Shown piece after piece: positions 6,001 through 56,378 of a DNA stretch of 60,910 bases (position 1 is its first letter; every line of letters starts with the position of its first letter). Below the pieces are notes generated by a model. That model did no database searches. It had not been told where the DNA came from and was given only the letters and a program-made list of their open reading frames with translations. The translations under genes and the position numbers were made by a program. Source of the stretch: Folioceros fuciformis (Eukaryota); the NCBI GenBank assembly GCA_049999805.1, contig JBNGIO010006095.1, positions 70,393-131,302 of the forward strand. Reading direction: 5' to 3'.

Positions 6001-7270
6001 ACTTCGATCCGGCCAGCCCGTTGTTTGGGCCGTTGCAAGTTGCCTCGCCAACCAGCTTGCCACCGACCAGCCAGGCCGCCGGTGGCCTAGCCNNNNNNNN
6101 NNNNNNNNNNNNNNNNNNNNNNNNNNNNNNNNNNNNNNNNNNNNNNNNNNNNNNNNNNNNNNNNNNNNNNNNNNNNNNNNNNNNNNNNNNNNCTAGAGCT
6201 GGACCCGGTGCTCCCCTACCCCTACTGCCGCTGCGAGGCCGCCTGCCTGCAGTGGCTGGCGGCTTGCAGCCAGGCCATGCTGCCTAGTTGTAGCCAGACC
6301 GAGCTGCCCGTCTGCAGCCGGTACCCAGCTGCTTGCTCGCAACCGTCTGGCAGGATCTGCTCCGCCACCTGCCTCCTAGACCCCGTCGGGACCTCAGCCG
6401 AGCCCCAGCCTGCTAGCTCCTGGCTGGCTAGATCCGGCTGGCAAGGTGGTCGTACCCACCAGCCAGCCCTACTGCCTTGCTCCGCCTCGACCAACCGCCA
6501 ACAAGCCGGCCGGCAGGACGGCCTGTCTTCTAAGCTGCCTACCTGCACTAGTGTCGGCCCGCCACTTGCGCCAGTGTCGGGCCACCTGCCCCTCAGCCAC
6601 CAGCCGCTGCTCAGCTCCAGGCCCTCGCCTAGAAACTTGCACCCCTGCGCCCAATCGTCTAAAACTGGCTCTGACCCTGCCGCGCAAATCCAGCAGCCCG
6701 GCTAGTCTTCCCGTCATGACCCGTCCCGCCTGACCCATCCTCGACCAACCGGCCGGATCCGACGGCCAGGCCCCTGCCATCCTGCCGCCGATGCAACCAG
6801 CTAGTCAGCCCCGCTGGTCGCACGGCCGGGCCACTGCAGGCTCCCAGTTCCGACCAGGCAGCCTTCCCACGAGGCCCAGCCTGCCTGCTCTCAAGATCCT
6901 CAGCCCCCAGCGCACCTTGGCAAGGCCATGGCAAGTCTAAGCACGCCACCCCCATGCCTATGCCCAACTGCCTTCCGCACGCTCCCAAGGCCCCAACTCA
7001 CCCTCACACGCCCGACTTAGGAATCCAGACACACCGGCGTCCCTCTCCACGGGCACACCTACCCCCTACTTCACATTTTCCACCGCCACGGGCTAGTTAG
7101 ACGATTGTTGACTTTCTAAACTGCACCACCACTATCTCTGATCATCCTATTTAATCTAGCCTTATCTAAAATAGTTTCCTAATTACCTCTCCAAGGAATT
7201 CTATCAAAACTCCAAAAAAAACAAATACCACCCATTTTCTAAGGGGCCTATCCACCATGTGGTCTCCACA
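3093..7270 (-). mobile_element. Non-coding GC-rich LTR-type insertion (giant solo LTR or assembly-collapsed element) nested in the copia pol
   Basis: Termini TGTGGAGA (3093-3100) and TCTCCACA (7263-7270) form a perfect 8-bp inverted repeat. It is flanked by the 5-bp TSD ATACC (3088-3092 and 7271-7275). Removing it restores the copia frame YGLQYT-SSGSKSLELISYADADWA. Contains an N gap at 6093-6192. Orientation is inferred only from a motif shared with 11229-11987. Confidence 0.88.
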
Positions 7271-13832: not shown

Positions 13833-14034
13833 TGCTCCCCTTGCCAGCCTTCGATATGTTAGAATTGTCTAGCAGCGGTNNNNNNNNNNTGCTCCCCTTG
13901 CCAGCCTTCGATATGTTAGAATTGTCTAGCAGCGGTCCACCTCCTTTCAACTTGTTATCTTCTGCTCCCCTTGCCAGCCTTCGATATGTTAGAATTGTCT
14001 AGCAGCGGTTCACCTCCTTTCAACCTGTTATCTT
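13833..14034. repeat. Tandem repeat, ~73-bp unit, about 3 copies, spanning a 10-N gap
   Basis: TGCTCCCCTTGCCAGCCTTCGATATGTTAGAATTGTCTAGCAGCGGT at ~13833, 13890 and 13963. One copy may be a gap-edge artefact. Confidence 0.85.
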
Positions 14035-14953
14035 TCATGCCATAAGCACATTCATACCATACGCACATTCATACTTAGAGTACTATGCAAAGCTCCTTGG
14101 TGTTACCATGTTGGATGGCTGGCCTAGCCTTCCCCAGGAATCTCATATCACGAGTCTAGTTGGGAACAAACCATTGGAATCCTCCCCTTGTGGAAATCTC
14201 ATATCACGAGTCTAGTCGGGAATAAAGCATTAGTTTCCTCCCCTAGCAGAAAATCGAGCACCCTCTCAAGCCATGATGTACTCAATTTGACGGGAACACT
14301 TTTGCTCCTCACTGTGTGCACAGACTCAAGCGCCATTGGAGGCCCTCTTTCGAAAAGGAGCCTAGGATTGGATCCTATATACTAAATGGACAGCCGTCCA
14401 ATCCCCCTTGAGGAAGTTGAGTTGGAGCAGTCCTACAGTCGTACAGAATTGTTCCTTCCTTGACATTGTGAAAGGACTCACGAGGTAATCAGTGGTGCTT
14501 TAAGTTACAGACCTGCCATAACGAGTGTTAGCAAGCGAGTACGAAATGCAAATAGTGAAACGCACAGAGGTCAGACTCAAATTCATAATGTTGCTGATAA
14601 GGAACAGAGCATTCGCGCTCCAAAGCCACCTTGATAATCCATTGCGATCAGCTGCAAAGCCAAGTGCTTTAGTCGGGCTCGTGATGGAGATGCTCCACCT
14701 AAGCACGCAGGAAACCGGGGAGAGAGACAGCAGAGAGAGAAAGTGGGGGAGTGAAAACGCGGAAGGAAAAGATGGGATAGNNNNNNNNNNNNNNNNNNNN
14801 NNNNNNNNNNNNNNNNNNNNNNNNNNNNNNNNNNNNNNNNNNNNNNNNNNNNNNNNNNNNNNNNNNNNNNNNNNNNNNNNGGGTGTGTATGCCGGTGGCC
14901 GGTGAGGAGGGGCATGGCAGGCTCCATTGGAGGGCCTTGGGAAGCGCCCGACA

Positions 14954-22511: not shown

Positions 22512-23570
22512 AGCTACGACCGTGTCAACGGACCTCGACGCTCAACCCACGTCGAGCACATGGCTTTCGCTCACAAGCAGGCTCTTAGCTGGGTAGCTAC
22601 AATTCGTTGCAATATAATGCGTTACAACAGCTGCCCATTCTCATAACGAGCTAGGTACGAGGAGGTGTATAAAATCACGAAGCACGTAGTGTGGGTGCAT
22701 AAAATGGGCCTCTAAGAGCTTCAGGCCCACCCTAGGAGAGCACATAGACAGACAGGAGGGAGGGCCGACTAAATCTACGAGGTCAGCACCAACTCTTCGG
22801 CAAGCTCGACTTTCTTTTTCTTTCTTTTATTTTAAGTGAATAGATCAAGATATATGTATATAAGCTCGACTTCGATCTTCGATAAACCTCTAATTATCGT
22901 AGACTCCAATCCAATTCTCCATGCATGCTAGTTGTGCAGAGCTTAGGGTTTAACTCTCTTTGCTTACGTTGCCCTCTCCATAGCCACTCTCCCTAGCGCA
23001 TAGCCACAAAGGTCTNNNNNNNNNNNNNNNNNNNNNNNNNNNNNNNNNNNNNNNNNNNNNNNNNNNNNNNNNNNNNNNNNNNNNNNNNNNNNNNNNNNNN
23101 NNNNNNNNNNNNNNNAAACCATGAAAAGTGTCCAATAACAAACTGTTCTTGGTCCCTCATGCGAGGACTGACTAGCGGCAGGCATTTTGTTTGAAAAAGA
23201 GAGCGTGCTGTCAAATCCCGTATAACGAATTTACCTCACCGGCGGTGGCGGTTTTGTTGTTTATCGGCTTTTGAGGAAGAGAATAAGTACATGTTGTATG
23301 TCGTTGTGGATAGTACCCCGCACCCAGGTGGCAATAGAACCCGGGTTATTAGAGAGTTAATCCGTCGAGTCCGGCAAGAACCCTAAACCTTGTCGGACAA
23401 GAGGGGAGAATGTTGAAGCGTAGTCGATCGCGCTCGGAAACATGGTCTCAGCTTTGAAAAATCCTTGCTAGTGCACACGCCGACGGCGTCATCTCCTCGA
23501 CTTCGATGAAGGCAGTACCCGGCGGGTGAACTGGTGCAGGATCTCCGCTTCCACTCTGCTCTCCAGTATC

Positions 23571-26464
23571 ATGGCGTTCGAAGTCACGCAGATCCTCCTC
23601 AACGCGCAGTCGGCTGATGGCACGGTCCGCAGGCTCGCAGAGGAGAGTCTGAAGCAGTTTCAGGAGCAGAATCATGCGGCTTGGCTGGTCTCACTGGCCT
23701 CGGAGCTAGCCAACGTGGAGAAACCCGTGGATAGCCGGAGACTCGCGGGCCTCATCCTCAAGAACTCTCTGGATGCTAAGGAGGCCACACGCAAGGCAGA
23801 ACATGTGCAGCAATGGGTCGCGTTGGATCCGAGTGCCAAGCTCACAGTCAAGGAGTGTCTTGTGCGCACCTTATCTGCCGTGGCGGAGGAGGCGCGGCAT
23901 ACGGCAGCGCAGGTGATTGCAAAAATCGCCACCATCGAGCTTCCTCGTGGAGAATGGCCCGAGTTGGTGGGCTTGCTGCTGAGCAACATGGGGAGGCCGC
24001 ATAACGAGCAGCCGCCACATCTGAAGCAGGCCACTCTGGAAACCCTAGGCTACGTGTGCGAGGAAATCTCGGCGGACGTGCTTGCGCAGGAGCAGGTGAA
24101 CTCGATCTTGACTGCGGTGGTGCAGGGCATGGTCTCGACGGAAAAGAGCAGTGACGTGCGGCTGGCAGCTACTAAGGCGCTATTGAATGCTCTTGAGTTT
24201 GCTCAGACTAATTTTGACAATGCGCTGGAGAGGAGCTACATCATGCGTGTTGTGTGTGAGGCTGCCACCTTGTCTCCGGATGTTAGGGTGAGGCATGCTG
24301 CCTTTGAGTGTTTGGTCTCCATATCGGCCATCTACTATGACAAGCTGTCGCAGTACATCCAAGACATCTTCACCATCACCTCCAAGGCTGTTCGGGAGGA
24401 TGATGAGCTCGTAGCCTTGCAAGCCATTGAGTTTTGGAGCTCCATCTGCGACGAGGAAATTGAAATCCAGGAGGAGGTAGCTAGGAGTTGTTCGGCTGAT
24501 TCAGAAGTGCCCTTTTTCGCCTTTATCAAACAGGCATTGCCAGTGCTGGTGCCTCTGCTGCTGGAGACGCTGCTCAAGCAAGACGAGGACCAAAATCAAG
24601 ACGATGGAGCGTGGAACTTGTCCATGGCCGGGGGCACCTGTTTGGGGCTTGTGGCTAGAACAGTGGGGGATGATATTGTGCCCCTTGTTATGCCTTTTGT
24701 TGAGGAGAATGTGTCCAAGCCTGATTGGAGATGCAGGGAAGCTGCAACTTATGCATTTGGATCTATTCTAGAGGGTCCTTCTTTGGACAAACTGACATTG
24801 TTGGTGAATGCTGCCTTGGAGTTCATGTTGAACGCCATGAAGGACGAGAATAATCATGTCAAGGACACCACTGCTTGGACTCTCGGTAGGATATTTGAGT
24901 TTGTCCACTCACCGACACTGCATACGCCTGTCATCACCCAAACAAACCTAGCTGGTATTCTGAATGTGCTTCTAGAGAGTATTAAGGACACTGCAAATGT
25001 CGCCGAGAAGGTTTGTGGGGCTATCTACTTTCTGGCGCAAGGATATGAGGAGGCTGGTGGTGCGTCGTCTCCACTTTCTCCGTTCTTTCAGGGTATTGTG
25101 CATCAACTCCTTGCCACCACAGACAGGGAGGATGCTGGTGATTCACGACTTCGGGCATCCGCATACGAAACGCTGAATGAGGTTGTGCGCTGCTCAACGG
25201 AAGATACAGCGCCTGTTGTGTTGCAGCTTGTGCCGATCATAATGCAGAAGCTGAATTATACACTGGAGATGCAAATCCTGTCTCCAGATGATAGGGAGAG
25301 GCAAAACGAGCTCCAAGCTCTCCTGTGTGGTGTCTTGCAGGTCATCATACAGAAGCTCGGGGCTTTTGAGTCCACAAAGTATGGAATAATCCAGCATGCG
25401 GACCAGCTCATGGGCCTTTTCCTGAGGGTGTTTGCTTGCAGAAGTGCTACTGTCCATGAAGAAGCCATGCTGGCAATTGGGGCTCTAGCGTATGCAACTG
25501 TTGTTGAGTTTGGGAAGTATATGTCAGAGTTTTACCGATACTTGGAAATGGGGCTTCAGAATTTCGAAGAATATCAGGTATTTGGGGTCTGCCTTCTTTT
25601 CCCTTTTCCTGTTTATCGTCTGTGTGGTGTGTCAGATCTCCCACTGGTTTTTTAGGATCGGAATGTTGTTTTGCCTTGTGTCTGAGAACTTGTGGAACAA
25701 CTTAAAGGGCAGGGTTTCTGAACGGACGAGTGTTTTCAGGTTTGTGCTGTGACAGTGGGTGTTGTGGGAGATATCTGCCGGGCACTCGATGATAAGATCT
25801 TGCCTTACTGCGATGGCATCATGACACAGCTTCTGAAAGATCTTTCGAGCAGCCAGCTGCACAGGAGTGTGAAGCCGCCAATTTTTTCATGCTTCGGTGA
25901 CATAGCGCTTGCCATTGGAGAGCATTTCGACAAATACCTACCATATGCCATGCCCATGCTTCAGGGTGCGGCCGAGTTGTCGGCCCAGCCAGCGATTAGA
26001 GATGATGAAATGCTCGAGTACAATAACCAGTTGCGGAGCGGAATATTGGAGGCCTACTCGGGCATCTTTCAAGGGTTCAAGAACTCAAAGTCTGATCTTA
26101 TGCTTCCGTACTCAGCTCACATCTTGCAGTTTATCGAAAATGTCTATCAGGATAAGGACAGGTACTGAACTTCAATGCCCAATTGCTTTTGCATTTTCTT
26201 GTGACAGCAGTATGCTTCCTTGCAATTTAACATGACTGGAGGGTTTCCCCGTCTGTCAAACACAGGGATGACGTGGTCACAAAGGCAGCTATTGGGGTGT
26301 TAGGAGATATGGCTGACACGCTGGGTCAGCAGGCCGGTACCTTGTTGCAGCGGTCAGTGTTTTACAAGGACTTCCTCGATGAGTGCACTTCATCTGATGA
26401 CCAACAACTGAAGGAAACCGCAGAATGGGCACAGTCCACAATCAATCGCATTCTTAACCCTTGA
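23571..26464 (+). CDS. KPNB1: Importin subunit beta-1; exons 23571-25577, 25740-26161, 26266-26464
   Basis: MAFEVTQILLNAQSAD, IEFWSSICDEEIE, DWRCREAATYAFGSILEGP, VHEEAMLAIGALA, LHRSVKPPIFSCFGDIALAIG. Two GT-AG introns keep the frame. Confidence 0.97.
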
Positions 26465-27570
26465 AGCTCTTCTTCCATATTTTTTTCTTGTATTGAAGTG
26501 TTGTCTATTCTGATATATAATTTTGTAACAATGATATGTTGCAAACATGGAGGCTCTCTTGCGTTTTATTTATGCCTTAGATGCCTCCTGGAGAAGCTAA
26601 GGTGATAGAACCAAGTTTTGAACTGTGCACGCCTGAGTGCAGGTAGACGATTATTAGAGGTCCAAGTCCTTTTTGTCCGGTCCGCGTCGATAGGGAAAGA
26701 GGTTCCTTGAGGTTTCATGTTGGGTTAACGAGATCAAATCTAACTCTTGTGCTTCTAAGACGACCCAACTGGTCAAATATCGTCCACGAGTGAGGGTCAA
26801 GCAGAGTCGTATGCAATCGTTCTCTCGGAATTGTTGCCCCATATTTTGCCCGTGCTTGACACACACACCTCGTTGGTTTACCAGCTGGTATTCTAGTAAC
26901 TGACGCGCCCATTTCTGGACGGGACGTCTAACAAAATCATGTCTTATGAGCCCTGGATAAATAATATTTAAATAAAGGATCTGGGGTTTAAAATCATCAA
27001 ACACCATCGCGATGCTGTGCTTGTCATTTTCGTCAACATATCACTTGGCCTTGGGTTACCTAGCTAATGCCCCAATATTTGCAATAACAAATATGTCCGA
27101 TTTTGCTTTTGTCCTGACTATGAGCAGCCCGAGTCTGGATGTTACAAGACACGGGATGCTGAAGATGATGGATGTCGTGCTGAAGATGATCCCTGTCTTG
27201 GGTGAAAGACGACTTGCAGTAAATCTGCATCAGCAGCGCCCTGATTGCTGAACAATTTTAGATGTGGTCGCAGCTGCGTGATGCGGAATTGGAAGCAGGC
27301 GAATCCCAGGGTGGAGAAAGGGAATGCCCAGTCCAGAAGCCGCCAGTTGGGGTTGCCCGCAACTGGACCTGGACCCTGGAGCTGGGGTTGGAGTTGGAGC
27401 TTGACAGGGAGGGACGGGTATGGACGGGGTCATCAGGGATGCGTGGCACAGGGGAGCTGGCTCCCGGGCACAAGCTTCGTAACTCCACGTATTGCGTCTC
27501 ATGGCTGCCCGGCATCCTGGTCTCACTCACAGGGTCACCCTGGCTCCAAACTTAGGGCAAGTCCCAGGAG

Positions 27571-29850
27571 GTGATGTGGATGCACAAGCTGTACAAGCCT
27601 GCTTGGCAGCTGGCTGCTCTGGATATTCAGCACATGAGTCGCGGCGGCCCTGCGGCCCAGTGGAGCGTGCCATGGAGGTCTGCAGGGCTTGGAAGGGAAA
27701 GGACGGTGAGTGTCACGGCTGACACCGTCATCAAGCTGTGCGAGCACGGACAGCTCATTCAGGCCGTGGAGGCTGTGGGGATTCTGGTGCAGACTCTGTC
27801 TCATATTTCTCAAGCCCTCTTCTATGGTGTGTTGAAGACGTGTGTAGTTCACAAGAATCTTGTTCTGGGCCGCCGTGTGCACGCTCTCACTGTAAGGCAG
27901 CCTGGGTATGTGTCGGGTACGTTCTTGTGCAATCACATCCTGCGGATGTATGCTGCTCATGGCAAGTTGCCAGAAGCCATGCAAGTGTTCACAGATGTGG
28001 TCGAACCAGATGCGTTCACTTGGTCTGCCATTATCTCGGCTCATGTTCAACTCGGACAAGATGAGCAGGCCATACAGCTGTACAATCGTATGCGCATGTC
28101 AAGCGTGAAGCCAGACAACCATGTGTTCTTGGCAGCACTTCAAGCTTGTGCGAAAAAGGCGGATTTGAAGATTGGGCAGCAGGTGCACGCTGATGTGTTG
28201 GCCGCTGGGGTCGAGCCTGATTCGTTTGTGTGTAATTGCTTGGTGGATATGTATGCCAAGTGTGGCAGCTTGGAGGATGCTCGGAAAGTATTCGACGGGC
28301 TTGGGAAAAGAGACGTGGTGACTTGGACTGCTCTAATTTCAGGATATTCCCAGCAGGGCATGGGTCAGGATGCCCTTCGTGTCTATCGTGCTATGCAGGA
28401 AGAAGGCATGGCTGTTCCTGATTATGTGACGTTTCTGGCTCTTCTGCAGGCATGTGCAACGGTGGGTGCCCTGGCTTTCGAGGAAGGCAAAGAGTTGCAT
28501 GTTCAGATAGGAAGGCAAGGACTTAAGGTTGATGTTGTTTTAGGTTGCAGCCTGGTAAGCATGTATGCGAAGTGCGGCAGCTTAGAGGACGCTCAGGCTG
28601 TGTTCAACAGCCTGGGTCACAAAGATGTGGCTGTATGGACAGCTCTGATGGCAGGATATGCAGATCGGGGCATGGGTCAAGAAGCCCTTCGGCTTCACGG
28701 TGATATGCAAGAAGAGGGCATCGCTGCACCCACTTCAGCGATGTTTGTGTGCCTCCTACAGGCCTGTGCAAGTGTGGGTAGCCTTGCATTGGAAAAGGGA
28801 AGGCAGCTTCATTTACAGATAAGAGAACAAGGACTTGAGCTGGATGTAGTTGTGGGATGCAGCGTGGTGAACATGTATGCCAAGTGTGGCAGCTTGGAAG
28901 ATGCTCAACGAGTCTTCGATGTGCTGGGTCAAAAGGATGTGGTGACGTGGACAGCTCTAATAGCAGGGTATTCCCAGCAAGGCATGGGGCAGGAAGCACT
29001 TCGTCTCTATGGGGCTATGCAAAACGAAGGCATGGTTGCACCCGATTCTGTCACATTTGTGTGCCTCCTGCACGCATGTGCAAATGTTGCAGCTCTGCAT
29101 CTTGGCAGGCAGATACATGCGCAGATTGTCGAACAAGGGCTTCACGCCGATAAAACTGTAGGCAATAGTCTTGTAAATATGTATGCTAAGTCTGGGAGCA
29201 TGGTGGATGCACAGTGTGTGTTCGAGGAGTTGCCTGAAAGAGACGACGTAGCCTGGAATGCACTGATCGCAGGCTACACTCGACAAGGAGACAGTGAATT
29301 GGTCTTCGACTTGCTTCAGAGAATGAGAGAAGATGGCATACACCCAGCCGGCGTTACGTTCCTTAATCTGCTAGCGGTATGCAGTCATACTGGTCTTGTG
29401 AACAAGGGCCGAGAGTACTTTAAGGCTATGAGCAGACAATACGGCGTCACTCCCACTGCCGACCACTACACATGCATGGTGGATCTCCTGGGTCGTGCCG
29501 GACACCTGGATGAAGCAGTAGCTTTGGTGAGGAAGATGCCTGTACTGCCTGATGCTGCAGTTTGGCGCACTCTTTTGGGTGCTTGTCAGAAGTGGAGCAA
29601 CGTGGAGGTTGGACGCCATGCTTTTGATGAAGTAATGAAGCTTGATAGAACAGACTCTGCGGCATACGTGTTGATGGCGAATATATACATAGGTGAGGGC
29701 ATGTTGGAGCAGGCAAAGGAGGTGCAGGCGAGGAGGACAGGAAGTGGGGCTTGGAAGCAGCCAGGCCAGAGTTGGTGGACAGATCTGGAGGGACAGGTGC
29801 ACAGTTTTCTGGTGGGGGATCCACTGCATATGGTGAGTGGAGTCAGATAA
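27571..29850 (+). CDS. PLS-class pentatricopeptide repeat protein with E1-E2-E+ (truncated WW-type DYW); candidate organellar RNA-editing specificity factor
   Basis: About 17 L/S/P motifs (MYAKCGSLEDA, DVVTWTALISGY), then P2-L2-S2 (HYTCMVDLLGRAG), E1/E2, then WKQPGQSWWTDLEGQVHSFLVGD and a stop. No HxE/CxxC deaminase motif. True ATG uncertain (27583 or 27634). Confidence 0.93.
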   Translation: MMWMHKLYKPAWQLAALDIQHMSRGGPAAQWSVPWRSAGLGRERTVSVTADTVIKLCEHGQLIQAVEAVGILVQTLSHISQALFYGVLKTCVVHKNLVLGRRVHALTVRQPGYVSGTFLCNHILRMYAAHGKLPEAMQVFTDVVEPDAFTWSAIISAHVQLGQDEQAIQLYNRMRMSSVKPDNHVFLAALQACAKKADLKIGQQVHADVLAAGVEPDSFVCNCLVDMYAKCGSLEDARKVFDGLGKRDVVTWTALISGYSQQGMGQDALRVYRAMQEEGMAVPDYVTFLALLQACATVGALAFEEGKELHVQIGRQGLKVDVVLGCSLVSMYAKCGSLEDAQAVFNSLGHKDVAVWTALMAGYADRGMGQEALRLHGDMQEEGIAAPTSAMFVCLLQACASVGSLALEKGRQLHLQIREQGLELDVVVGCSVVNMYAKCGSLEDAQRVFDVLGQKDVVTWTALIAGYSQQGMGQEALRLYGAMQNEGMVAPDSVTFVCLLHACANVAALHLGRQIHAQIVEQGLHADKTVGNSLVNMYAKSGSMVDAQCVFEELPERDDVAWNALIAGYTRQGDSELVFDLLQRMREDGIHPAGVTFLNLLAVCSHTGLVNKGREYFKAMSRQYGVTPTADHYTCMVDLLGRAGHLDEAVALVRKMPVLPDAAVWRTLLGACQKWSNVEVGRHAFDEVMKLDRTDSAAYVLMANIYIGEGMLEQAKEVQARRTGSGAWKQPGQSWWTDLEGQVHSFLVGDPLHMVSGVR

Positions 29851-34613: not shown

Positions 34614-35170
34614 CTACTGTTGGCCCTTAAAGGAATCCTGCCTCTCATCCCCAACCAAACTGCTATGCACCAGATCCTCTTTGTTCGTCCACCAGGTCTG
34701 ACCTGGCTGATCCCACGCTCTGATCGTTTTTCTCCTTGCCTGTATCGCCTCAGCGTGATTCCACATCTGGACCGCTGTGTATATGTTGGACATCAACACA
34801 TATGTTGCAGCATCTTTCACCTCTAGCTTCACTGATTCGTTGATAGCAAAAGGGCTCACCACGACATTGCCCCAATTTGGACAAGCACCCAAGAGAGTGT
34901 GCCAAACTGTGGCAGAGGGCGTTACAGGCATGGATCTCACCAAAGCTAGTGCCTCATCCAGCTGACCTGCACGGCGTAGGACATCCACTGTGCATACTTA
35001 GTGGTCTGCCGTTGAAGTGAAGCCACAAGTCTCTACTCATGGCCTCAAATACCCCCCACGCCCTCATCACTAGACTAGCATGACTGTACACCGTCAGTAC
35101 CATAAGGAAAGTGATCCCAGTTGGGTGTAAGCAATCCACAGTCATTCTGTGGACCAAGTCCAACACCACT
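34614..35170 (-). pseudogene. PPR gene fragment (P2-L2-S2-E1-E2-E+, WW type), frameshifted and 5'-truncated
   Basis: LHPTGITFLMVLTVYSHASLV / DVLRRAGQLDEALALV..VWHTLLGAC..YVLMSNIY..WDQPGQTWWTNKEDLVHSSLVGD, split over two frames. Collinear with the C-terminus of the PPR at 27571-29850. Confidence 0.88.
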
Positions 35171-35280
35171 TCACTCTCTCAATTTTGCGACAGCGAGGTG
35201 TTTGAAATCCAGCAAGCGCTGACTTTCTGCATAGATGGAGGTGAAAGTTCACCCTGGTCACAACTGTCATGATCTGGGTC

Positions 35281-37993
35281 TCATCGGGTCTGTAACACTT
35301 CTGAATCCCAGCCGGAAGATCGCGTGGTAGTTGACTCGGAATCTCCAAACGAGATGCCATGAGCTTGCATCTCACTTGTCCTCAAATCCGTGTGGAGAAG
35401 ATCCACCTTGTTGAAAAACTCCTCAGCCTTAAGGTTGGATCCCTTGATCCTTTGCAGCATTTCCACGACTTGACTCATCGACGGCCTTGAGGATCTTGAC
35501 AACACCAGGCATGCCACCGCTACCTGCCACCACAGATGCACGGTTAGTTTCCATTCTGCGCTGAGCTTAACTGAGGGTCTCCTCACGGCGACTTGACTCA
35601 CCCCTGCAACTGCCTCAACTGCTTGGAACTCCTCTCGTGACAGAGACGACGACACGCTCGAGTCAATGATTTCACGGACCCGCCCACTCTTGATGAAGGG
35701 GATTGACCACACAGCAAGGTTCTGCTCCCCGACAGGATTTGAAAGGTCAATCGGCTTCTTGGACGTGATCAACTCCAGTAGTACAACCCCAAAGCTGTAC
35801 ACATCTGCCTTGTCCGTAAGCTGGAAGTTGTGGAAGTATTCCGGATCCAGATAGCCAGGGGTTCCCTTCACAAGTGTGGACACATGTGTAGTTTCCAAAT
35901 CCACCAGCTTAGAAAGCCCGAAGTCCGCAACTTTGGCATTGAGGTGGTCGTCTAGTAGGATGTTGGCAGACTTCACGTCACGATGGACGATTTGTGGTGT
36001 TGCCTGAACATGCAAGTACTTGAGTGCCTCAGCTGTTTGAATAGCAATCTTGAACCGTGCTTTCCAGTCAAGCCTGGTTTGGAAGCCCTTCTGTGCTATG
36101 GATAGGTGATCCTGCAAATTCCCATTGGGAATGAACTCGTACACAAGAAGCGGATCCACGTCCGCCTCAACGCAACAACCCAGAAGCTTGACGAGATTCC
36201 TGTTGTTCAATTGTGAGAGGATGGCCACCTCGTTTACGAAGGACTCCACATGACTGGCATGCTTTGCCATTTTAATGGCCACGGTTGTGCCATCATCCAG
36301 AGTTCCTTTGTACACTGTGCCAAACCCTCCTCTCCCAACCTCGTTGTCTGCAGAGAAACATTTTGTTGCTCGCTTCAGCTCATCATAGGTGAAGACGGTG
36401 AATGCGGCGCGGAGTCCACTAGCATGCCCCTTCAAAAGCCCATCGATGGCAGCCGAGGCATAATGAGCCTTCCTGACTTCTTCACTGGTCAGAACACGAC
36501 GTTCTGGATACCTGCCTCTGGGAATAAATCCATACTGCCGCCGACAGTGCCGAAAAGCTATGGCTAAAAGAACTAGCACAAGAAGGGAGATGATGCTGAC
36601 GAAGGTCGCTATCACAACTGCAACCACCGGAACAGATTGCTATATTTCAGTACTGGTCCAGAAAAACCATGGACAGCAAAGCAAGATGGGTCTACCGGTC
36701 AATGGGAACTTCTTCCTCTGCTCCCCCCGACCGGAACTGGGACTGGGACTGGATCCGGGTTCGGGGCTGCCATCTCCTGCCAGAGCCCAGGCCCATCCGC
36801 CACAGAGAGGTTCAGCATACCAATTGCAAGCGTGCAACTTCAGAGGAGAATAATGAGGCAAGGCAAGGAGAGGTGAAAGAAGTTTCCAGAAAACGTACCC
36901 ACTTGCAATTGCACTTTCAGCTTCATGTAGCCATTCTCGCAGTTATCTCCGATTCCATCAATATAATAGTACGTGTCCCCGTGTGCTCCTAGAGGGATGA
37001 TAGTGTTGGGCACGCTGAAGTTGCCAAGCGGCTGACTGGAGACGTTGCAAGAGTCGAAATCAGATTGGCTAACCCAAAGGACGTTGCTCTCGTTCACCTT
37101 GAAGTTGAAGGCTGAAGTGGAATGAGAAAAAGGTGAGCAGCGAGTCCTTCATCAGGCCACCACAAGTACTCTAACTGTGACACCACAAGGGCCAACAACA
37201 ACTTGAGCTTGTTGGGAGGGAGAAAATCCAGACTCGGCCAGGCGCACGTACCAATCGCAGAGGGGTTGCCCATGGGATTCGAGGAGAAGATGTGCTCGTA
37301 ATAGTTGGGATCTGACTGACGTTTCCGTTCAATTGTAGTATAAATGGGCGCCGGGGAATAGTCCACTACAACCGCCGGGGGAGAGCGCCCCATATGACAC
37401 AAACTGCTGCAAGTTCCGGGGCAGGACGGTGGCGGCAAAGCGCATTCCCTGTACGCAGTCTGAACTAGTGTTGGTAGTGGTGTTCCCTTTGCTGGTGAGG
37501 TAAAACATGCCAGCGTCCTCGAGAACAAGCACCACACCGGCGACGTTCGTAACATTGAGTGCGATGTCCGCGATGGAGCAGTTGGCGAGGTCGCTGCGTG
37601 TCCAAACCTGCGTCACGTCATGGTTGGTGCTGTCCATCTGGAAAACTGAGGCCATGGCAACATGAAGCAGCTCCTCATGATCAGAAACCAGCAAAGGCTT
37701 CCACAAGCAGGATAACCAGCTGCAAATTTGGTGCAACAGCGCAACACTGTCTTACGTAAGGAATCGTTCACGTAGAGCGTCAAGCTGTCCGCCCAATCTT
37801 GGTAGAAGGTTGGGTCTTGCTGATGAGGAAACCAGTTAGGGTTCGCTGCAAGGCCTCCGACGGAATACTGTGCAGGGTCCTGTCCACGCACAGGTACCGG
37901 AGCGGCAGCCAACATGAGAGCGAGAAACGCGAGCGCGACACAGCTCCAGCCCCATCTCCGCCTCCAGCTTGAGCCGAACATAGAACACTCCAT
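35281..37993 (-). CDS. Receptor-like kinase: signal peptide, two phytocyanin/ENODL-like domains, Ser/Pro linker, TM helix, WAK-like RD Ser/Thr kinase
   Basis: Exons approximately 37993-37756, 37645-37252, 37111-36899, 36776-36696, 36617-35602, 35523-35281. Domain 1: YSVGG..NW..FYQDW..NDSLLF..HDVTQV..C..GMFYL..DCVQGMRF. Domain 2: NYY..FNF..SNVLWVSQSDFDSCN..GDTYYYI..NCENGYMKLKV. TM: VVIATFVSIISLLVLVLLAIAF. Kinase: GRGGFG, VAIK, HRDVKSANILL, DFGLS, GTPGYLDPEY. A frame problem exists near 37330-37420. Confidence 0.85.
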
Positions 37994-38257
37994 CGCGGGG
38001 CTATGTAGATTACGAGGCAGCCTCCTCCGACGGAACTACGTTCTGGATTTCAGGTGGACGCTTTACTTCAATGCGGAGGTCCGAGTCGTCCTGAGCTGAG
38101 CGGACTGCCTCACGCATTCGTTTCGGGGAACCCCGAGTCCTCTGGTGACACCGCACACCATATCAGGAGAAAGCAAGTCACCACACGGACCATAGGACGG
38201 TGATTCATTGAAAAAGTCAACGCGGCAGAACTCGCCACGCATTGGCCCAAGTGACTG

Positions 38258-39373
38258 CGCGGGGCCCGCCACCTCCATGGCGTGGTGAGCCATGACCCTA
38301 CCGCTCTCCATCTCTCCTCTCTCCTATACCTACGGAGTTCTCCCTTGAATACATACGGCCAGTCCTGTACCGACTTCGTCTCGCGAAACCGGGTTTGAGC
38401 TTTGAACGAAACCGGATCGTTTCGGTGAGGCACTTGAATCAACCCTAAACCGGTTCTGGACGGCTTGAACACGTTTATGCCAAAAACTGAAAGTTGCCCC
38501 GCTGCTTCAAGTCAACTGCTGACAGTGCGGTCTGATGTCTGCCGAAATGCCCACAGATTGCGTTCGTGGTGCAGGGTGTGCCGCCTGGTTTGTTTGCCGT
38601 CACTGCTCTGGATTGAAAATGTAGCAAATACCAACATAGCTCTGCGCCAAGTGTGGAGAAGGAAATGCGGACAGCTTTCATCCCGTGGATGCGTGTACCA
38701 GATTTCATTACGGGGATGGGAGAGCTGTCTCAAGCCCCCACAAGCTATTCAGCTCTCCCAAACCCCCACAAGCTACTCTGTGGTGAGCAGTAAGAAGAAC
38801 GCAATTGTTGTTGGGGGACCTCTATTTCCCAAGCACGCAATTGTTGTTGCGGGACCTCTATTTCTCAAGCCAGATACGACCTGCAAACTCACGACGTATG
38901 ACTCACTCAATCTTGGTGAGAGGCACTTCAGTTGATGCCTTGTTTCTCACAATGTGTGTGAGAAACAATGTGTGTTCTTCTACAGGTTATGGTGTGCTTA
39001 TGGACCTTCAAACTTACGTACCATCATCGCGTTCAAGAGGTCTGTGAAAGAGAACATGTTCTCCCCAATTCCCCAAACATCTTTCCGCCCGGACTCCAGA
39101 AATTACAGCAACCATACCTTGGCACGGCCATTGTTTTTCCCCCGCCCTCACCTCTTGGGAGAATAGGAAACCTCGTCAACCTCGTCCTGATTCTCATCGT
39201 CCGTCTCGAACATTTCCGCTGAGGCAGGCTCAAAACTCAAAACTCAAACCCGGTTTTGCGAGACGATACATTCAACATACATTCAAGGGAGAACTCCGTA
39301 GGTATAGGAGAGAGGAGAGATGGAGCGCGGGAGGGGCATGGCTCACCATGCCATGAAGGTGGCGGGCCCCGCG
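38258..39373. mobile_element. Foldback/MITE-like element: ~145-bp inverted repeats around a ~0.83-kb spacer
   Basis: 38258-38403 is the reverse complement of 39231-39373, including a perfect stretch of more than 40 nt (ATTCAAGGGAGAACTCCGTAGGTATAGGAGAGAGGAGAGATGGAG). No TSD identified. Confidence 0.65.
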
Positions 39374-54489: not shown

Positions 54490-56378
54490 TTATCCCGTCC
54501 CACCCTCCTGCACGGCAAGAGAGCAGGATTTCTCGTTCCAGACGAGCTGCAGCCCGCCTTCCTGATCCTGACAGGCGTGTACATGGCTGTCCATCCAGTC
54601 CTGGTGCGGTGGAGTAATAGGGTTTCCGAGACTGGAGTTGGGGCAGTTGGGATGCGCCATTGGGAAGTGTGTGCAGGGCTCGCTCGAGACCCCACGGGAG
54701 CAAGCTTCACCGGGCTCCAGAGTCTCCCCCCTGACATTCATTATGAGAGGACGCAGCCCAGCCAGGCCGTGGGCCACGTACCCAAAGGTGGAGTAGGCGG
54801 AGGTGGCTATGGCATCGCTCAAGCTTAGCAGCCACATCTCCAGCAACGCCGTTCGGGCCTGGCGCATTGTCTCGTCCTGCTGTCCGCCTTCTCCACACTG
54901 CTTCCATGACCAGCAGCACGAGCATGGATGGATCAGGATGGCGTGATGTAGCCACAGCAGCAGGTGCAAGAGCAGCAGTCGGAGGAAGGGCATGGCGAGA
55001 TGACGTACGGAGTGGATGCTGACAAGGCGACCGTCGTCACTGGCTCCCTCGCTGTACTCCCGCTTCATCTCCTGGTAGTACCTCTGTTGCAGAGACGCCA
55101 CCAGCACGGCCACGCTTCCGCCATCCCCAGCCGGCCGGGAAGATGAAGGGGAGGAGGCATTGGGAGAGGACAGCCTGGGGAGCAGGCGGTGCTCCTGCAG
55201 GCATTGCAAAACCCTAGCGTGGACCGCGCTGTCGAAGGCGGCCAGATCCCATCTTCCGTGGAGCCGGATCTGGACTCCCACGCGAGCTCCGGAGGTGGAG
55301 AGGTATCCCTTGTACACGCGCAGCAGTTGCTTCCAGATAGGATTTTGCGGCACGACGATTAGGCGGGCCAACTGTGTGAAGATGGAGAAGTGCGCGTCGT
55401 CGGGGACAGCAGCGTCTCCCTGGCCTGGACATCGTTCCTGCTGCTGCCGGGGCGGGAAGAGCGGAACAAGGCGGTGCCAGAAGGAGGGCAGCGTGAGCAG
55501 GCGGGAGGCGTAGTACTGCGTGCTGCTCCAGGCCAACCACGTCACGTCTGGCGTGACCGCGTGGTGCGTGGAGTCACAGAAGAAGGACTGGTCGCCGGCG
55601 CTCTGGATGTGCTCCAGATGCAGGTTCACCACAGGGGGCACCGCCCGGGCGGCTGCTGCTGCTTCCCAGGCGGCGCCTAGAGCGGGAGCCTGCCGGACCG
55701 CGTCGTAGGGGAAGTCCTCCGGGAGCAGCCAGGAGGAGCCGGGGAAGGGCTGGCAGAGCAGGCTGCCCAGCTTCTTGCCCCCTCCCGTCTCCAGCATCAG
55801 GACCCTGTCGGTGGCCAGGGCGTAGAGGAATGCCGACACCAGGGCCAGGATCTTGTTCCCCAGCCCAGCCGAGCCCTCCATGACGATGAGGTACCTGCAT
55901 GAGGAGGTAGATGGCGCAGGACCCCTGACGAAGGCCTCCGTCCAGTTGCTGATCCGGGATGAGCAGAGCCTGCGCAGGCTCAGGTACCGCTTCCAGCTCT
56001 CCTCCAGGGCAAGGGACGGGGGGAAGCGCTGCTCCGGCCTCCGGTACTGGTGTTGTTCGTTGCGAGCCAGGCAATCCGCGTCACGCTCTGCATACACCAT
56101 CCACACCACAGTTTCTTCAACAATTTCCTCTCCTCAGGTCTGTGCTCTCTCTTTCTCTCACCTTCTTCCTCCAGATAGGTAGACACTGTCGTCGTCGTCC
56201 TCCTCGCCCTGGATCCTGCAGGCTCGGGCTGGAGCCTGGGCTCCCTGTTCTTTCCCCTTCCCCACTGCCACTGCCACTGGCGGAGCAGCTGCGACTCCAC
56301 GTAGAGCAGCACGCACACCAGGAGCAGCGCCGTGCAGATGGCCCCCCCTATGGTCAAGAGCTTGTGGGGCTTGCCCAT
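54490..56378 (-). CDS. GT37 alpha-1,2-fucosyltransferase (xyloglucan FUT1/MUR2-like), type II membrane protein
   Basis: N-terminal TM helix; intron 56088-56161 joins to ERDADCLAR; CRYLIV..AGLGNKILALVSAFLYALATDRVL; LLCQPFPGSSWLLPEDFP; VGVQIR; ALLEMWLLSLSD..TSAYSTFGYVAHGLAGLRP; SSEPCTH. Confidence 0.93.

Follow-up and report, generated by a model that had tools for sequence, protein, structure and literature searches.

Plant receptor kinases are classed by their ectodomains, and each type that has been characterised opened a signalling field. For the phytocyanin/ENODL fold we know of no ligand in plants; ENODLs are reported to be important for pollen tube reception. ENODLs such as Arabidopsis ENODL14/15 are single-domain proteins, mostly held by a glycosylphosphatidylinositol (GPI) anchor; a review counts them among GPI-anchored proteins (PMC6726743). 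Here we analyse a 60,910-nucleotide stretch of the Folioceros fuciformis genome (assembly GCA_049999805.1, contig JBNGIO010006095.1, positions 70,393 to 131,302 of the forward strand; hereafter the window), which carries on its minus strand, at 35281-37993, a gene for a predicted receptor-like kinase (RLK) with two ENODL-like phytocyanin domains, a transmembrane (TM) helix and a kinase related to those of the WAK, WAKL and LRK10L types. An initial annotation of the locus had proposed a little-described receptor class, and the literature bears this out: the searches yielded no characterisation of such receptors beyond a single line in the excerpted text of a 2023 preprint (metaRLK), which lists Cu_bind_like among unreported RLK ectodomains and suggests metal binding (10.1101/2023.12.21.572927).

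At this locus a single gene is transcribed in which two phytocyanin-type domains, a TM helix and a WAK-like RD kinase are fused, and with a probability of about 0.75 the locus encodes a type-I membrane receptor kinase belonging to a small, conserved and uncharacterised land-plant family. The transcript evidence comes from a public run, X1, which holds 0.70 of the sampled words of 35200-38100; two further runs, X2 and X3, gave short kinase-like pieces only. When aligned over 34900-38400, the X1 contigs skip all five introns, with joint ends that read CT..AC on the plus strand and hence GT..AG on the gene strand, and their depth is about 60-80 in exon bins versus 0 (37123-37239) or about 2 (36772-36888) in intron bins. 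Because every joint is GT..AG and the intron bins have a depth of 0-2, we read X1 as a transcriptome, and its contigs behave as one. Record 2 of this run (1687 nt) extends from 38122 to 36012 through four joints, ending just before the HRD motif, and thereby joins the 5' untranslated region (UTR) to the two phytocyanin domains, the linker exon, the TM helix and the initial 606 nt of the kinase exon. It thus crosses position 36900, before which transcripts of separate phytocyanin and kinase genes, as the initial annotation had allowed for, would have ended. Record 1 (899 nt) continues from 35922 to 34946 across the fifth joint. Apart from one patch in exon 2 discussed below, the listed pieces of both records, including both UTRs, show 0 differences from the window.

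The gene coordinates first proposed, 35281-37993, are confirmed to the nucleotide: the gene lies on the minus strand, with its ATG beginning at 37993 and its TGA (35283-35281) closing at 35281. Transcript joints delimit six exons (38122..37756, 37645..37252, 37111..36899, 36776..36696, 36617..35602 and 35523..<=34946), their ends being corrected by +1 at the intron 3 cut and by +2 at the intron 5 cut. The intervening introns measure 110, 140, 122, 78 and 78 nt and are all GT..AG on the gene strand; introns 1-4 are in phase 1 and intron 5 is in phase 0. No ATG was seen upstream of 37993 within the 5' UTR stretch 37994..38122, and an N-terminus equivalent to the predicted signal peptide is present in the orthologues. 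The signal peptide and the TM helix were judged from hydropathy only, and the cleavage site was placed by eye. A tblastn search of the window with four homologues returned this locus and no second copy of the gene. The parts of the gene are given below; the orthologues cited there are P0015 (CAM6096037.1, 737 aa) and P0026 (658 aa) of the liverwort Calypogeia fissa and P0022 (MCO5591003.1, 706 aa) of the fern Adiantum nelumboides.

37994..38122, minus strand: 5' UTR, minimum extent; X1 record 2 begins at 38122.
37883..37993, minus strand: start codon and predicted signal peptide of about 37 residues, with a basic n-region and a hydrophobic core of mean hydropathy 2.2.
37756..37882, minus strand: remainder of exon 1, the N-terminal half of phytocyanin domain 1; aligns with the first strands of domain 1 in P0015, P0022 and P0026.
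37646..37755, minus strand: intron 1, 110 nt, GT..AG, phase 1; X1 record 2 joint 37756->37645.
37425..37645, minus strand: first part of exon 2, the C-terminal half of phytocyanin domain 1; 13.4 bits against PF02298 alone, 66.8 bits on our own profile when spliced to exon 1.
37301..37436, minus strand: patch of exon 2 with the inter-domain linker and the first strand of domain 2, where assembly and transcript differ; holds the frame break.
37252..37350, minus strand: last part of exon 2, which shares the reading frame of exon 3 and encodes the first strand of phytocyanin domain 2; the orthologues align here with the beginning of their own domain 2, and the piece forms part of a 60.8-bit match.
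37112..37251, minus strand: intron 2, 140 nt, GT..AG, phase 1, occupying the position in domain 2 that intron 1 has in domain 1; joint 37252->37111.
36899..37111, minus strand: exon 3, coding for the C-terminal two thirds of domain 2; 36.3 bits against PF02298 (E 5.8e-09).
36777..36898, minus strand: intron 3, 122 nt, phase 1; X1 joint with the cut moved by +1.
36696..36776, minus strand: exon 4, Ser/Pro-rich juxtamembrane linker; X1 record 2 has an 80-nt piece here, flanked by two joints.
36618..36695, minus strand: intron 4, 78 nt, phase 1; joint 36696->36617.
36553..36617, minus strand: TM helix, its first codon starting at 36696; hydropathy along the protein peaks here, at 3.05 over 19 residues.
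36552-36535, minus strand: basic stop-transfer after the TM helix.
35602..36393, minus strand: kinase domain in the main exon; PF07714 at 158.2 bits and PF00069 at 149.7 bits.
36336-36304, 36282-36262, 35985-35977 and 35925-35917, minus strand: Gly-loop, VAIK, HRD and DFG motifs, respectively.
35524..35601, minus strand: intron 5, 78 nt, GT..AG, phase 0, inside the kinase C-lobe; X1 record 1 joint with the cut moved by +2.
35281..35523, minus strand: coding part of exon 6, with kinase subdomain XI, the C-terminal tail and the stop at 35283-35281.
34946..35280, minus strand: 3' UTR, minimum extent; X1 record 1 runs to 34946.

Both ectodomain modules are recognisable as phytocyanin domains, with different margins. 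The initial annotation had expected two matches to PF02298; domain 2, represented by exon 3, scores well above the gathering cut-off of 20.8 bits, whereas the exon 2 piece of domain 1, at 13.4 bits alone, falls below it. The Pfam scan took single-exon pieces, and the spliced domain 1 was scored by a purpose-built hidden Markov model (HMM) made from 60 single-domain phytocyanin representatives; on this model the spliced domain 1 and domain 2 reach 66.8 and 60.8 bits, the best of 1000 shuffles giving 6.7. A profile of the family ectodomain (A1) searched against the PDB matched stellacyanin (1JER, 9.4e-18) at domain 1 and, with a separate stretch for each of the two domains, mavicyanin (1WS7). 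Exon 3 also matched mavicyanin directly (E 4.2e-06), and a phmmer search of the PDB with the exon 2 part of domain 1 gave 0 matches at E<=10. In both domains the columns of the Cys pair, which forms a disulfide in phytocyanins, are kept in alignment with those of mavicyanin and stellacyanin. The ectodomain further contains eight N-glycosylation sequons and two S/P-rich linkers, a disordered one between the domains and another before the TM helix. An AF2 model of the ectodomain of the orthologue P0015 predicts two domains, each with a pLDDT above 90, and a connecting linker below 50; the PDB entries that match the model best are umecyanin, stellacyanin and mavicyanin (TM score 0.86-0.90).

Type-1 copper in solved phytocyanins is held by His, Cys, His and Gln/Met, and the site requires the Cys thiolate. 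At these positions domain 1 of the window protein has His, Thr, Asp and Met (ligand Cys to Thr, second His to Asp), and domain 2 has Ser, Asp, Asn and Tyr/Met (first His to Ser, Cys to Asp, second His to Asn), the first three of these being the residues that exon 3 aligns to the mavicyanin ligands. Because the ligand Cys and the second His are missing from both, the alignments place both domains with the ENODLs, as had been proposed from the start, and not with blue-copper or redox centres. The best profile and fold matches, namely stellacyanin 1JER, mavicyanin 1WS7, umecyanin 1X9R and cucumber basic protein 2CBP, are by comparison soluble single domains with type-1 copper. The likeness to ENODLs extends to the predicted fold without copper ligands, the Cys pair, an S/P-rich glycomodule-like linker, the secretory signal and the phase-1 intron; the window protein departs from them in carrying two domains on a TM helix and kinase and in having no GPI signal. 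That the ectodomain might nevertheless be a copper or redox sensor, as the Pfam name Cu_bind_like and the remark in the preprint excerpt (10.1101/2023.12.21.572927) would have it, and as the first His and axial Met retained by domain 1 could allow, appears very improbable in view of the substitutions in both domains and of the orthologues P0015, P0022 and P0026, whose aligned sequences likewise lack these ligands. The ligand analysis thus corrects the suggestion of metal sensing in the excerpted preprint (10.1101/2023.12.21.572927).

From the juxtamembrane linker onwards, the features named in the initial annotation are all present: an S/P linker, a single TM helix (22 residues, mean hydropathy 3.05, followed by the basic stop-transfer) and an RD kinase of about 290 residues with intact Gly-loop, VAIK, HRD and DFG motifs. 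With its predicted signal peptide, single TM helix and cytoplasmic Ser/Thr kinase carrying the Gly-loop, the VAIK Lys, HRD and DFG, the protein has the hallmarks of the RLK/Pelle family. The kinase comparison sampled the 120 best matches, a part of the RLK subfamilies, among which the nearest named relatives are WAK, WAKL and LRK10L kinases, including MpRLK-Pelle_WAK_LRK10L-8. In a FastTree of 121 kinase rows, the window kinase falls in an 8-row clade with its tandem-phytocyanin relatives (SH-like support 99), and in an IQ-TREE of 44 rows, hand-chosen from the 121, the clade of the window kinase with P0015, P0022 and P0026 receives 100/100. Neighbours of this clade are WAK, WAKL20 and LRK10L-type kinases, so the grouping among WAK/WAKL/LRK10L-type kinases, in agreement with the earlier designation as WAK-like, is recovered in both trees. 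The resemblance to WAK, WAKL (e.g. WAKL20) and LRK10L receptors lies in this kinase relationship and the shared RD RLK/Pelle type; the window kinase stands outside the WAKL20 group, in its own clade. WAK and WAKL receptors differ in their GUB_WAK_bind (PF13947) or EGF (PF07645, PF12947) ectodomains, for which four ectodomain pieces of the window protein (about 300 aa, most of the ectodomain) gave no match at E<=1. Inside the tandem-phytocyanin clade we also observed three C. fissa models, P0001, P0033 and P0034, that are kinase-only or tandem-kinase; these may be additional members of the family whose gene models were split or merged.

The architecture is not unique to this locus, a point on which the initial annotation had left novelty open. 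PF02298 is present in four of the 120 best listed kinase relatives. P0015, P0026 and P0022 each contain two PF02298 stretches and a kinase and align with the window protein across both domains; they share its order of parts, from the signal peptide through two PF02298 domains and P/S linkers to the TM helix and kinase, and P0015, at 737 aa, is nearly the length of the 736 aa predicted here. Their kinases are 54-66% identical to that of the window (best 66%) and their ectodomains about 25-29%, and the inter-domain linker is much shorter in the window protein. Two further relatives, P0046 (Ceratodon purpureus, KAG0617494.1) and P0188 (C. fissa, CAM6114917.1), share PF02298, the TM helix and the kinase but differ in having one Pfam domain each, although in P0188 our own HMM gives two weak stretches. 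Because the kinase of P0046 falls in a different, moss-specific clade, this protein may represent a separate fusion or a diverged branch. All tandem and single-domain relatives are unnamed or hypothetical proteins.

A profile search of 1.84 billion representatives returned 1668 matches at E<=1e-3. Among the best 150 of these that were listed, we scanned 13 of the 14 that were at least 450 aa long, plus nine shorter ones, and found a kinase in three of the 13 (P0022, P0027 and P0188) and in none of the nine. As weak evidence, a search with exon 3 for longer proteins found none, and one with profile A1 found P0015 only. In the Atlas, a streptophyte cluster of 65 members carries Pkinase in 100% and Cu_bind_like in 80% of its members. 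Given the liverwort and fern relatives, the single-domain form in a moss and this cluster, the architecture is rare and conserved; it is also already catalogued, though uncharacterised, because the excerpted preprint lists Cu_bind_like RLK ectodomains (10.1101/2023.12.21.572927) and the Atlas cluster carries the domain. At a homologous locus, the Logan contig P0153 yields an open reading frame (ORF) that reads through intron 2 and exon 3 and is 59% identical. Separately, the profile matches P0212, P0267, P0197 and P0245 have phytocyanin-like domains in other fusions. Such fusions include a 5'-nucleotidase C-terminal domain (751-778 aa) and thyroglobulin-1 with fibronectin-II repeats, and the choanoflagellate Salpingoeca rosetta has a 564-aa protein with a phytocyanin-like domain.

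With respect to the origin of the tandem, the initial annotation had correctly noted a phase-1 intron at the same position in both domains, introns 1 and 2 each lying one residue before the same conserved Phe of the respective domain, and had taken this as a sign of internal duplication. That part of the claim does not hold specifically. A conserved phase-1 intron is described in the excerpt of PMC4499708 as a feature of the phytocyanin domain in most phytocyanin genes, and because it is so general, the matching introns are a mark of the family and not evidence for duplication (PMC4499708). The two domains are 22% identical, and in the domain tree they are not sisters, with support of 25-52 on deep nodes, too weak to tell duplication from a fusion of two genes. 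The exon layout, which may be written as A-intron-(B+linker+A')-intron-B', suggests from the sequence that two phytocyanin coding units were fused head to tail; introns 1-4 being all in phase 1, it further suggests that the fused units were then joined to a TM-kinase unit. We infer that this fusion predates the split of the lineages leading to this plant, to liverworts and to ferns.

The assembled sequence and the transcript disagree at one place. The assembled coding exons total 2185 nt (mod 3 = 1), and the reading through exon 2, which the initial annotation had taken as intact, overlooks a frame break in the assembly; its one spliced model stands in that the parts are joined in the transcript, but the window exons offer no continuous translation. 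We considered an intron bridging the two frames: GT/GC..AG intervals of at least 20 nt inside 37300-37480 that connect the frames without a stop provide about 20 candidates, none of them used by the transcript, and each either is shorter than 45 nt or would remove the end of domain 1 or the opening strand of domain 2. X1 record 2 has 420 nt for exon 2 versus 394 nt in the window, with 26 extra nt and 20 listed substitutions, all within 37301-37436. In the X1 version, 238 + 420 nt gives phase 1 at the border of exons 2 and 3, as exon 3 needs, and the corrected coding sequence is 2211 nt, or 736 codons plus the stop. From 37407 to 37253, the X1 patch reads as 57 codons without a stop, encoding an S/P-rich linker in which a short motif recurs, and it changes the Arg codon at 37327 to Trp, the same column being Trp in three of three orthologues (P0015, P0022, P0026). 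RNA editing as the cause of the patch is ruled out by C-to-T changes on both strands and by the 26 inserted nt. A blastn search with the patch found no second copy of it in the window. The window also contains four runs of N (6093-6192, 13880-13889, 14781-14880 and 23016-23115; three of 100 and one of 10), indicating that it is scaffolded.

Several observations count against the receptor as reconstructed. The ATG frame of the assembled window stops at 37331-37329, after 184 codons and inside exon 2, so that the complete protein cannot be translated from the assembled window, domain 2 lying in another frame; within the X1 patch, eight codons are unread and two insertion events (10 nt) between 37409 and 37421 are unlisted. 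The mRNA is represented by two X1 contigs, between whose listed pieces lie 89 nt (35923-36011), inside a single genomic exon and at the best-conserved motifs of the kinase, a place to which contigs of other kinases map as well; being contigs, they show no single molecule, and X1 comes with no RNA record, its kind being only guessed. The cupredoxin Greek-key fold is a prediction made on the orthologue P0015, and the family is known from sequences alone. Because the other listed X1 pieces match the window with 0 differences, we regard the frame break as probably a local defect of the assembly or haplotype and not the state of the expressed gene. It is unlikely, though to be taken seriously, that the sequenced accession has a real frameshifted allele, whose stop at 37331-37329 would leave a 184-residue secreted single-domain phytocyanin-like protein, the intact X1 receptor then deriving from another allele, strain or near-identical copy. 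This is what the window sequence itself says; transitions make up 13 of the 20 listed substitutions, and the divergence of about 12-14% outside the indel core resembles diverged DNA more than random error, while contigs drop rare variants, so that the window version could be hidden in X1. An island of 136 nt with about 15% divergence amid pieces with 0 differences is, however, not ordinary allelic variation, the window version replaces the Trp kept by all three orthologues, and, as the four N runs mark the window as scaffolded, local patching is plausible. That a secreted phytocyanin gene and a separate kinase gene have been joined only by a faulty model is scarcely credible: the premature stop of the assembled sequence would fit it, but a single X1 contig is spliced from domain 2 into the linker exon and on into the TM/kinase exon, and the orthologues share the single-protein layout. 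For users of the genome, the comparison flags a 136-nt patch where the assembly contradicts the transcript and breaks a gene.

As for how a receptor of this kind might work, its ectodomain, N-glycosylated and probably O-glycosylated, would bind an apoplastic or cell-wall partner, with the copper-less phytocyanin modules acting as ENODL-like binding modules. Occupancy would be relayed to the cytoplasmic WAK/LRK10L-like kinase, probably via dimerisation or co-receptor recruitment as in other RLK/Pelle receptors. We consider it improbable that the protein is instead, as a Rosetta-stone interpretation would hold, a fusion of two partners, an ENODL and a receptor kinase, that work in trans in seed plants, with its own ENODL module offering another receptor or a peptide ligand a co-receptor or chaperone surface. 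ENODL14/15 are reported, in the excerpt of PMC6726743, to interact directly with FERONIA, and the fusion is conserved across deep land-plant lineages; yet the window kinase groups with WAK/WAKL/LRK10L types, apart from the rows named CrRLK1L, and domain fusions are frequent among RLKs and need not mirror partners in trans. The ENODL-FERONIA link bears on this protein by analogy only. Just as doubtful is the related idea that the tandem ENODL-like receptor kinase represents the ancestral cis form of the ENODL-receptor signalling pair. Under it, non-seed plants would sense a wall or apoplastic cue by phytocyanin modules wired to a WAK-like kinase, and seed plants would have lost this receptor or split it into GPI-anchored ENODLs acting in trans on receptor kinases; if true, it would give the first direct handle on the binding partners of ENODL domains. 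For the membrane receptor kinase that we favour, the pairing of two such domains with a kinase that looks active from its sequence could itself serve as a tractable read-out for the binding partner of the fold, through kinase activation in transformable plants.

Other ORFs in the window carry plant nuclear domains, among them a copia-type pol fragment, a BACK-domain ORF, importin-beta, PPR proteins and a xyloglucan fucosyltransferase. The pol fragment, of Ty1/copia type (Pol_BBD, gag_pre-integrase, rve), occupies 1-1158 on the plus strand and runs off the window start. An open frame of 727 aa with importin-beta and HEAT repeats (23472-25655, plus strand) starts just after the 100-N gap at 23016-23115 and is followed by an apparently intronless 764-aa frame for a PPR protein with an E motif (27556-29850, plus strand; PPR_2, 251 bits). 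The xyloglucan fucosyltransferase is a 547-aa open frame at 54490-56133 on the minus strand (PF03254, 226 bits). Just downstream of the kinase gene and on the same strand lies a degenerate PPR fragment in two frames (34614-35178, minus strand; E motif PF20431, 33.7 bits), into which the X1 contig with the kinase 3' end reaches, to 34946. On the other side of the gene, at 38258-38400, two further X1 contigs of 3051 and 552 nt match on opposite strands with 7 and 12 differences and then diverge, which suggests a transcribed repeat just upstream of the gene.

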